A stretch of DNA of 64,000 nt, from the NCBI RefSeq assembly GCF_044324875.1, contig NZ_CP172185.1; one strand, 5' to 3'. The notes beneath the pieces were generated by a model. The model made no database searches. It was given only the letters and a program-made list of their open reading frames with translations, and had not been told where the DNA came from. Of the stretch, positions 55,612 to 58,137 are shown piece by piece (position 1 is the first letter of the stretch; each line of letters opens with the position of its first letter). The position numbers and the translations under genes are program-made. Source of the DNA: Escherichia coli (GTDB lineage Bacteria > Pseudomonadota > Gammaproteobacteria > Enterobacterales > Enterobacteriaceae).

Positions 55612-56733
55612 ATGGTTGCTGAGTTGACCGCATTACGCGATCAAATTGATGAAGTCGATAAAGCGCTGCTGAATTTATTAGCGAAGCGTCTGGAACTGGT
55701 TGCTGAAGTGGGCGAGGTGAAAAGCCGCTTTGGACTGCCTATTTATGTTCCGGAGCGCGAGGCATCTATGTTGGCCTCGCGTCGTGCAGAGGCGGAAGCT
55801 CTGGGTGTACCGCCAGATCTGATTGAGGATGTTTTGCGTCGGGTGATGCGTGAATCTTACTCCAGTGAAAACGACAAAGGATTTAAAACACTTTGTCCGT
55901 CACTGCGTCCGGTGGTTATCGTCGGCGGTGGCGGTCAGATGGGACGCCTGTTCGAGAAGATGCTGACACTATCGGGTTATCAGGTGCGGATTCTGGAGCA
56001 ACATGACTGGGATCGAGCGGCTGAAATTGTTGCCGATGCCGGAATGGTGATTGTTAGTGTGCCAATCCACGTTACTGAGCAAGTTATCGGCAAATTACCG
56101 CCTTTACCGAAAGATTGTATTCTGGTCGATCTGGCATCAGTGAAAAATGGGCCATTACAGGCCATGCTGGCGGCGCATGATGGTCCGGTGCTGGGGCTAC
56201 ACCCGATGTTCGGTCCGGACAGCGGTAGCCTGGCAAAGCAAGTTGTGGTCTGGTGTGATGGACGTAAGCCGGAAGCATACCAATGGTTTCTGGAGCAAAT
56301 TCAGGTCTGGGGCGCTCGGCTGCATCGTATTAGCGCTGTCGAGCACGATCAGAATATGGCGTTTATTCAGGCTCTGCGCCACTTTGCTACTTTTGCTTAT
56401 GGGCTGCACCTGGCAGAAGAAAATGTTCAGCTTGAGCAACTTCTGGCGCTCTCTTCGCCGATTTACCGCCTTGAACTGGCGATGGTTGGGCGACTGTTTG
56501 CTCAGGATCCGCAGCTTTATGCCGACATTATTATGTCGTCAGAGCGTAATCTGGCGTTAATCAAACGTTACTATAAGCGTTTCGGCGAGGCGATTGAGTT
56601 GCTGGAGCAGGGCGATAAGCAGGCGTTTATTGACAGTTTCCGCAAGGTGGAGCACTGGTTCGGCGATTACGCACAGCGTTTTCAGAGTGAAAGCCGCGTG
56701 TTATTGCGTCAGGCGAATGACAACCGCCACTAA
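55612..56733 (+). CDS. tyrA: Bifunctional chorismate mutase/prephenate dehydrogenase
   Basis: 373-aa [33 protein letters not shown]...; recognised as TyrA. Confidence 0.95.
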
Positions 56734-56775: not shown

Positions 56776-57936
56776 TCAGGTTGGATCAACAGGCACTACG
56801 TTCTCACTTGGGTAACAGCCCAATACCTTCATCGAACGGGTGATGTCCCCTAACTCTTTCAATGCTTTTTGCATTTCCGCTGATTCAAGATTGGCCTGAA
56901 TATCCAGATAAAACATCTCTTCCCATGGATTACCGTGAATCGGGCGTGACTCCAGACGGGTCATAATCAGATTGTGGTTGCGCAGTACCAGCAACGCTTC
57001 AACCAGCGCACCAGCTTGTTGCCCGGTCGCCATTAACAACGTCGTTTTCGCTGGAACCTGGTCAGACACGTTAATGGCTTTACGTGCCAACACCACAAAT
57101 CGGGTGAAGTTTTGTCGCTGATTCGCTTCAATACGCTCCAGTACCTGCAAACCGTACAAAGTGCCGCCAGCTTCGCTTCCCAACGCAGCAACATGCGGTG
57201 ATTTTGCCTGTGCAACCTTTTCCATTGCCGCAGACGTACTTTCGGTATATTCAATCTTCCAGTGCGGATAACGATTAAGGAATTTGCTGCATTGCTGGAA
57301 TGGCTGCGGATGGCTGTAGACCGTATTGATGGTGGATAAATCAGTAGTGCCGGAGACCAACAAACAATGGTCGATAGTTAACGTCATCTCGCCAACAATC
57401 GACAAACTGGTATGTTGTAGCAGATCGTAAACGTCATTTATGGCACCGGAGCTGGTATTTTCAATCGGTACGACGGCATAGTCGGCCTGGCCGGTTTCCA
57501 CCTGATTAAAAATATCGGCAAATTTGGCGCAGCCACTTTCAATGAATTGCTCAAAGTGACGGGCAGCATACTGGCGCGCCGCAAGATGGGAATAAGAACC
57601 TTTGGGGCCGAGAAAAGCGATGCGTGCTGAGTGCGGATTAATTTTATTGAGATGTTGCTGGAGCAAAGCCTGCTGAGTTAATACGGAATCTTCAATGATG
57701 AGCTGGAACAGGCGAGTAATGTAATGGGCGTCCAGATGGTGCGCTTTACCGAGCGTAATTAATCTTTCCAGCAAATCGCGTTCACGATCAATATCACGTA
57801 CCGGGCGATGCGAGAGCAGTTTGGCTTTTCCCACCTCAACGGCCAGTTCGCGCCGCTCTGCCAGTAATGCTAATAATTTTTCATCCAGCGCGCTGATTTT
57901 CTCACGCAGCGCCAGTAACGGGTTTTCCGATGTCAT
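56776..57936 (-). CDS. pheA: Bifunctional chorismate mutase/prephenate dehydratase
   Basis: 386-aa [35 protein letters not shown]...; recognised as PheA. Confidence 0.95.
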
Positions 57937-57954
57937 AGTGTTGCCTTTTTTGTT

Positions 57955-57989
57955 ATCAATAAAAAAGGCCCCCCGATTTGGGAGGCCTT
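57955..57989 (-). terminator. pheA attenuator terminator
   Basis: Minus strand AAGGCCTCCCAAATCGGGGGGCCTT followed by TTTTTTATT, between pheL and pheA. Confidence 0.6.
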
Positions 57990-58025
57990 ATTGTTCGTCT
58001 TCGCATTCTGTTTCACACGACGAAA

Positions 58026-58073
58026 CGCCTCCCATTCAGGGGAAGGTAAAAAAGAATGCGAAGAAAAACGGTG
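58026..58073 (-). CDS. pheL: pheA leader peptide (Phe-rich, 15 aa)
   Basis: Minus strand ATGAAACACACACCGTTTTTCTTCGCATTCTTTTTTACCTTCCCCTGA translates to MKHTPFFFAFFFTFP with seven Phe codons. Confidence 0.85.
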
Positions 58074-58137
58074 TGTGTTTCATGTTTGTTTCCTTAAGTG
58101 ACTTTAGTACAGTACCCGTACTGTTTTCACGCTGTCA

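Follow-up and report, generated by a model that had tools for sequence, protein, structure and literature searches.

What decides whether RNA polymerase enters pheA in this genome? Between raiA and pheA, the window (the whole 64,000-nucleotide stretch of Escherichia coli contig NZ_CP172185.1 that we analysed) carries a short, phenylalanine-rich reading frame followed by a hairpin. The question is whether this is a switch operated by a translating ribosome or a terminator that stands behind a U-rich stem strand. We are almost certain that the element is the ribosome-mediated transcription attenuator of pheL–pheA. That attenuator is already known, and the window holds a common E. coli allelic form of it; for this form we established how it is built and which family it matches, that its pairings exclude one another and depend in silico on ribosome position, and that they are conserved.

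Leader, terminator and neighbouring genes

The leader ORF pheL lies on the minus strand at 58083..58036 and reads MKHTPFFFAFFFTFP followed by UGA. Its codons (ATG AAA CAC ACA CCG TTT TTC TTC GCA TTC TTT TTT ACC TTC CCC TGA) run from the start at 58083–58081 to the stop at 58038–58036 and close with the motif UUC_CCC_UGA. Seven of the 15 specify phenylalanine, namely numbers 6, 7, 8, 10, 11, 12 and 14 (58068–58042). A Shine–Dalgarno sequence, AAGGA, can be read 7 nt 5′ of the ATG (58095–58091, minus strand). With this site, a start and a stop, pheL is the kind of short translatable ORF, rich in codons for the end product of the pathway, that an attenuator calls for. An ORF of this length falls below the size that most gene callers pick up. 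Among the 1146 short ORFs of the window (8–40 codons, six frames), pheL is the sole one with seven Phe codons, and a binomial model expects 0.0014 such ORFs. The leader RNA also folds with z = −4.8 relative to dinucleotide shuffles, 0 of 200 of which fold equally well.

An intrinsic terminator, formed by segments 3 and 4 of the leader (3:4), occupies 57989–57961 between pheL and pheA on the minus strand. Its hairpin (57989..57965; AAGGCCTCCC-AAATC-GGGGGGCCTT) has 10 bp, seven of them G–C, a loop of AAAUC and a predicted ΔG of −19.0 kcal/mol. It leads into a U6 tract (57966–57961, minus strand), evident in the sequence and in the terminator scan, of which the first two U can pair with AA at 57989–57988. 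The 24 nt between the last T (57961) and the pheA ATG contain an A6 run (57951–57946, minus strand), which aligns with A5 in K-12, and the pheA Shine–Dalgarno sequence AAGG (57947–57944, minus strand), read from the sequence 7 nt 5′ of the ATG. The regulated gene, pheA (56776..57936, minus strand), appears in the ORF list as a protein of 386 aa, the bifunctional chorismate mutase/prephenate dehydratase; it matches NCBIfam NF007910 over residues 1–386 of 386 with 825.6 bits (cut-off 577). The gene downstream of the leader is thus a biosynthesis gene for the amino acid to be sensed. An earlier note, made from the sequence alone, had described a leader of 15 codons, seven of them for Phe, and, ahead of pheA, a GC-rich hairpin with a U-run, and both are present as described. 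The interval that it gave, 57937–58080, does contain these elements but ends 3 nt short and so cuts off the pheL ATG, and it left the strand unstated; all elements lie on the minus strand.

The gene upstream of the leader is raiA, and the gene order of the window is that of K-12, inverted: aroF–tyrA converge with pheA, then come pheL, raiA and bamD, and then the divergent rluD–yfiH. The convergent tyrA (plus strand, ending at 56733) and pheA (minus strand, ending at 56776) leave 42 nt between their stop codons, a gap in which a terminator serving both genes, or acting in both directions, would be expected.

Upstream of pheL, the sequence is identical to that of K-12. A putative pheL–pheA promoter combines the −35 element TTGACA (58138–58133, minus strand) with TACTGT as the best −10 candidate (58114–58109, minus strand), across an 18-nt spacer. 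A consensus scan for sigma-70 promoters over 57700–58700 returned none, because this −10 element is weak. The promoter assignment therefore rests on the visible TTGACA and on the identity with K-12, from which we infer the positions of the promoter and of the transcription start.

The terminator scan also places a terminator at 58163–58144 (minus strand) that matches the 3′ end of RaiZ in K-12. This terminator belongs to raiA, which rules out the leader terminator as the terminator of raiA. The 3′ end of raiA with its terminator (58140–58301, minus strand) corresponds to the sRNA RaiZ annotated in K-12 (b4805); a search of Rfam for a RaiZ-like RNA over this interval gave no match above threshold. 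RaiZ ends 2 nt from the presumed −35 element of pheL, so that the raiA/RaiZ terminator abuts the pheL promoter. ORFs on the plus strand, such as 57821–58609 (262 aa), run antisense to the start of pheA, to pheL and to raiA, and were set aside as artefacts.

Family match and E. coli alleles

The Rfam family RF01859 (Phe_leader) matches 57959..58084 on the minus strand over model positions 1–125 of 125, with 132.2 bits (E = 1.4e-24); this exceeds the gathering score, 55, by a factor of 2.4. The stem formed by segments 1 and 2 (1:2), with its two apical hairpins, and the terminator both align, with one non-canonical pair flagged. The family consensus shows the terminated conformation only, in contrast to the analysis here, and the antiterminator lies outside the model. 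No other Rfam leader family scored in the leader region. A plus-strand reading was rejected: Phe_leader reaches only 32.7 bits there (57978–58083), against the threshold of 55, and this sub-threshold match arises because the 1:2 stem is near-palindromic.

None of the matches to the sRNA families Arrc14, sX6 and sraA came near its gathering score, and all were discounted. They bear on the idea that, on top of attenuation and not in its place, the leader RNA of about 140 nt that termination releases also acts in trans as a putative sRNA. Under phenylalanine sufficiency such an RNA, stable, highly structured and ending in an intrinsic terminator, would be abundant, and the leader does weakly resemble Arrc14 (27.7 bits, where the gathering score is 99). 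However, that resemblance, at E = 0.49, is far below threshold and is explained by a shared terminator-like shape, and the three pairings of the attenuator account for all conserved positions. We regard such an added role as improbable.

The 321 nt around the element occur at ≥95% identity in 5425 of 5426 complete E. coli genomes, and everywhere the annotation of the matching stretch reads raiA, Phe leader region, pheL, pheA. None of the complete E. coli genomes in the collection is 100% identical over this query, and the best matches reach 99.7%, with one base different. That base, at position 58105 in the presumed promoter-to-start region, is A in the window and in K-12 and G in the best E. 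coli matches. The window thus appears to mix K-12-like and non-K-12-like alleles. The annotation shared by 5425 of the 5426 genomes, together with the RF01859 and NF007910 scores, bears out the earlier note in calling the element the classical pheL attenuator ahead of pheA.

Zurawski et al. are said to have been the first, in 1978, to sequence the pheL–pheA attenuator of E. coli K-12. The element of the window sits at the same locus as pheL–pheA of K-12 MG1655 (b2598/b2599), among the same neighbours (bamD, raiA, pheL, pheA and the convergent tyrA–aroF), and the two agree in the 15-codon ORF with its seven Phe codons, in the 1:2, 2:3 and 3:4 segments and in the UUC_CCC_UGA end. The two leaders differ in two places only: codon 4 of pheL (58072–58074, minus strand) is ACA (Thr) in the window and ATA (Ile) in K-12 (I4T), and the A5 run 3′ of the terminator has become A6. 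An 80-nt query that spans the Shine–Dalgarno sequence, pheL and the start of segment 2 is 100% identical among the matches listed, and 3380 of 5425 genomes fall into the ≥99% band, which at 80 nt means identity. The Thr4 (ACA) form is therefore the majority allele of E. coli and the K-12 form a minority one. The coding sequence of pheL in E. coli 06-00048 (WP_001386991.1) is identical to that of the window, the A-run at 57951–57946 is A6 in that strain as well, and E. albertii (L004) encodes the same peptide.

The longer A-run changes the reading frame that a ribosome would enter by a +1 shift at CCC_UGA. With A6 instead of A5, this frame ends after 34 codons at a UGA that overlaps the pheA AUG (AUGA; 57933–57935), whereas in K-12 it continues for 51 codons, into pheA. 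A +1 stop overlapping the pheA AUG has been described for Salmonella, not for E. coli (PMC3082878). By its UUC_CCC_UGA end (codons 14–16) and its conserved enterobacterial nucleotide sequence, the window leader belongs to group A of the pheL leaders defined in that work (Gurvich et al. 2011), from which it shows no substantial difference; its +1 stop is placed as in Salmonella and not as in E. coli K-12. Frameshifting at CCC_UGA was measured at 15% and judged incidental, without effect on pheA expression, and experiments in Salmonella likewise found that it leaves pheA expression unchanged (PMC3082878). A putative second function of the leader, be it as an sRNA in trans or through an allele-specific +1 read-through in which the UGA overlapping the pheA AUG would couple termination and reinitiation to pheA translation, has in our estimate only a slight chance of being real.

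Alternative pairings and ribosome position

The leader RNA has three predicted pairings. The 1:2 protector or pause structure (57993..58069, minus strand; predicted ΔG −32.7 kcal/mol) is found in minimum free energy folds, in the Rfam consensus and by RNAalifold; in it, 58069–58040, from the Phe codons through CCC, pairs with 58033–57993, and an apical hairpin joins 58045–58040 to 58033–58028. The 2:3 antiterminator (57969..58043, minus strand) appears in folds constrained with a ribosome footprint over the Phe codons. Its core pairs GGGAGGC (58033–58027) with GCCUCCC (57986–57980), its inner stem joins 58023–58015 to 58006–57995, and in the window allele an outer extension pairs UCCCCUGA (58043–58036) with UCGGGGGG (57976–57969) of the terminator 3′ arm. 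As 15 of the 20 paired nucleotides of the terminator are also used by the antiterminator, the two are mutually exclusive, and 20 of the 54 paired nucleotides of the antiterminator also pair in the 1:2 stem. The protector pairing thus overlaps the Phe codons and competes with the antiterminator. Left unconstrained, the leader folds into the long 1:2 stem and the 3:4 terminator.

We masked the RNA with a ribosome at each codon, with an assumed footprint that begins 15 nt 5′ of the A-site codon and reaches 12 nt 3′ beyond its first base. In full-length masked folds, the probability of the terminator is ~0.96–0.97 with no ribosome or with the A site at codons 2–4 or 12–16, the stop included, and that of the antiterminator is 0.87–1.0 with the A site at codons 5–10. 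Codon 11 is intermediate (terminator 0.55, antiterminator 0.43), and under this assumed footprint a ribosome stalled at Phe codon 12 or 14 does not favour the antiterminator at equilibrium. In transcripts that end before the terminator 3′ arm, sequestration of the terminator 5′ arm amounts to 84% under a Phe stall, compared with 17–18% when the RNA is free or the ribosome stands at the stop; this kinetic (co-transcriptional) test is a crude one, built from truncated transcripts and the same assumed footprint of −15 to +12 nt. The earlier note had proposed RNA folding as the check on its reading, with an absence of mutually exclusive hairpins as the result that would speak against it. The folds instead predict an antiterminator and a terminator that compete for the same nucleotides and exchange with ribosome position.

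The position of the pheL stop agrees with this behaviour. The UGA lies 2 nt 5′ of GGGAGGC, so that a terminating ribosome occludes segment 2, and the constrained folds switch accordingly. As a control, we left the leader ORF and the terminator unchanged and shuffled the 46-nt spacer alone, with dinucleotides preserved. A comparable switch arose in 0 of 400 shuffles (observed switch index 0.66; shuffle mean 0.01, maximum 0.50), and in 0 of 400 did the probability of the terminator under a stall drop to the level of the real sequence.

These results also bear on whether a ribosome is involved at all. The Phe codons form the 5′ strand of a long U-rich/A-rich stem whose near-palindromic nature is apparent from the 32.7-bit match on the opposite strand, and U-richness could come from structure alone; the element could then be a constitutive intrinsic terminator or structured 5′ UTR without ribosome sensing, its Phe-rich ORF an untranslated by-product of the U-rich strand. 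Such a by-product would nevertheless have a Shine–Dalgarno sequence at the correct spacing, an ATG and an in-frame stop, placed 2 nt before the antiterminator core, where a terminating ribosome needs to be to block it. The switching that depends on ribosome position, seen in none of the 400 spacer shuffles, likewise argues against a constitutive terminator, as does the frame FFF-x-FFF-T-F-P-stop, which is kept in the 118 species listed from the homologue scan described below while residues 2–5 vary. Moreover, translation of pheL has been reported, with frameshifting measured at its very end (PMC3082878). We give a constitutive terminator next to no credence.

For the attenuator, we propose the following course of events. 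Transcription would start ~20–25 nt upstream of pheL, and a ribosome would translate pheL while the polymerase has yet to leave the leader. With ample charged tRNA-Phe, the ribosome would pass the seven Phe codons and reach the UGA (58038–58036); there its footprint would extend over GGGAGGC (58033–58027), leaving segment 2 unable to pair with segment 3. With 2:3 blocked, the 3:4 hairpin (57989–57965) and U6 would form and transcription would stop short of pheA. On an RNA that no ribosome has loaded, segment 2 would be sequestered by the 1:2 stem, which is very stable, with termination as the likely outcome again. When charged tRNA-Phe is scarce, the ribosome would stall on the Phe codons (58068–58042), keeping segment 1 single-stranded and segment 2 free. 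Free segment 2 would then pair with the terminator 5′ arm once it is transcribed, no terminator would form and the polymerase would read on into pheA. None of our observations speaks against this course of events.

This mechanism, with derepression of pheA on phenylalanine limitation, is documented for the leaders of K-12 and Salmonella, together with a basal read-through of ~10% that depends on release at the UGA (PMC3082878). At the pheL protector hairpin, the polymerase pauses with a half-life of 16.7 s, which NusA lengthens ~1.9-fold (PMC9291695). That charging of tRNA-Phe regulates pheA in the window genome too is probable by analogy with this literature, given the near-identity of the K-12 leader. 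The element shares its design with trpL, hisL, leuL, thrL, ilvL and pheM (pheST), which combine a leader ORF of cognate codons with protector/pause, antiterminator and terminator hairpins and need no protein regulator; unlike the window leader, they use other regulatory codons and serve other operons, and the Rfam search of the leader region showed no sequence homology to them.

Conservation among enterobacterial leaders

We scanned one genome per species with the pattern TTYNNNTTYTTYTTYACNTTYCCCTGA, which required F-x-FFF-T-F-P-stop, and obtained at least 120 loci. Of the matches listed, 118 are Enterobacterales-type leaders, from Citrobacter, Enterobacter, Klebsiella, Pantoea, Erwinia, Serratia, Yersinia, Pectobacterium, Rahnella, E. 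albertii and others, and in 118 of 118 a terminator follows 45–48 nt after the stop. Two further loci, in a Nanoarchaeota MAG (L040) and a Bacteriovoracaceae MAG (L056), lack a terminator and were discarded as chance matches to the pattern, the latter lying inside a 99-codon ORF. Among the matches listed, the window leader has a mean column identity of 84% with the 117 other Enterobacterales leaders. Two different pheL leaders, L025 and L026, occur on two contigs of a single MAG, Enterobacter sp. UW_MP_ENTER5_1, one beginning MVRKPFFF as in Serratia grimesii (L052) and the other MKQTPFFF, the Enterobacter type, which suggests that this MAG is a mixed or contaminated bin. The Yersinia leaders (L010, L044, L061 and L112) have pheL and the terminator intact. 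An IS1541 insertion between pheL and pheA has been reported in Yersinia (PMC3082878).

Across the 118 leaders among the matches listed, residues 2–5 of PheL vary (KHTP, KLVP, INKV, TRKP and so on), and the nucleotides of the Phe run hardly change, even at third positions on which the search pattern set no condition or that lie outside it. Fixed third positions beside variable residues 2–5 fit a constraint on the RNA and its codons rather than on the function of a peptide. The opposite view, that PheL is a functional micropeptide under selection for its amino acid sequence and not for codon identity, can draw on the strong conservation of the C-terminal FFFAFFFTFP and on the finding that features of the nascent peptide, including the penultimate Phe, stimulate +1 frameshifting (PMC3082878). 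But the conservation extends to the nucleotides, including synonymous third positions with partners in the 1:2 stem, and leaves the N-terminal half free to vary; that of the residues is partly circular, because the pattern itself required F-x-FFF-T-F-P-stop, and the frameshifting was judged incidental and without effect on pheA expression (PMC3082878). A functional micropeptide therefore seems to us extremely unlikely.

The 1:2 and 3:4 helices are conserved as structures. RNAalifold on the 118 listed homologues returned the same helices independently of the window fold. In the alignment of these 118 sequences from the matches listed, the 1:2 and 3:4 structure is 95.4% paired, compared with 42–59% when the partners are slid, and double changes occur in six of its pairs (86 cells), which 0 of 500 shuffles reach. 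Among the 113 distinct sequences in the matches listed, compensatory changes in 1:2 involve alignment columns 23/78 and 24/77; those in the terminator involve columns 95/117 and 102/110 and convert A–U to G–C and C–G to U–A. Codon 9 (GCA, GCU or GUA) covaries with its partner in GAAUGCGAA. The antiterminator has pairing potential in 87% of cells, compared with 42–54% with partners slid, for the 118 leaders among the matches listed. Its core, GGGAGGC:GCCUCCC, yielded no covariation, with statistics no better than those of shuffles; the core is essentially invariant, and covariation therefore speaks neither for nor against this pairing.

The equilibrium switch of the window is not typical of its relatives. 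In full-length equilibrium folds under a Phe stall, the antiterminator beats the terminator in the window but in only 14–41 of the 118 listed homologues, a number that varies with the codon at which the ribosome stalls. The window is one of a subgroup with a GGGGGGCC 3′ arm that permits the extra CCCCUGA pairing; in 74 of the 113 distinct sequences among the matches listed, this pairing contains a C·A mismatch. Full-length equilibrium folding, which lets the terminator prevail in most of the 118 even under a stall, was therefore abandoned as a general test of homologues in favour of truncated transcripts. In this kinetic test, the terminator 5′ arm is sequestered in 118 of 118 leaders among the matches listed under a stall, and in 4–6 of 118 with free RNA or a ribosome at the stop. 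As a general feature of the family, the switch thus rests on the kinetic argument. Attenuation is held to be decided co-transcriptionally, and the kinetic result from the homologues agrees with this view.

A plain equilibrium fold does not reveal the switch in most homologues; tests for attenuators should therefore use co-transcriptional folds, with the ribosome masked and the transcript truncated at its 3′ end. The locus opens no new question. Its value lies in annotation: pheA in the window genome would stand under the standard attenuator that senses tRNA-Phe, and the strand and coordinates of pheL are now fixed.
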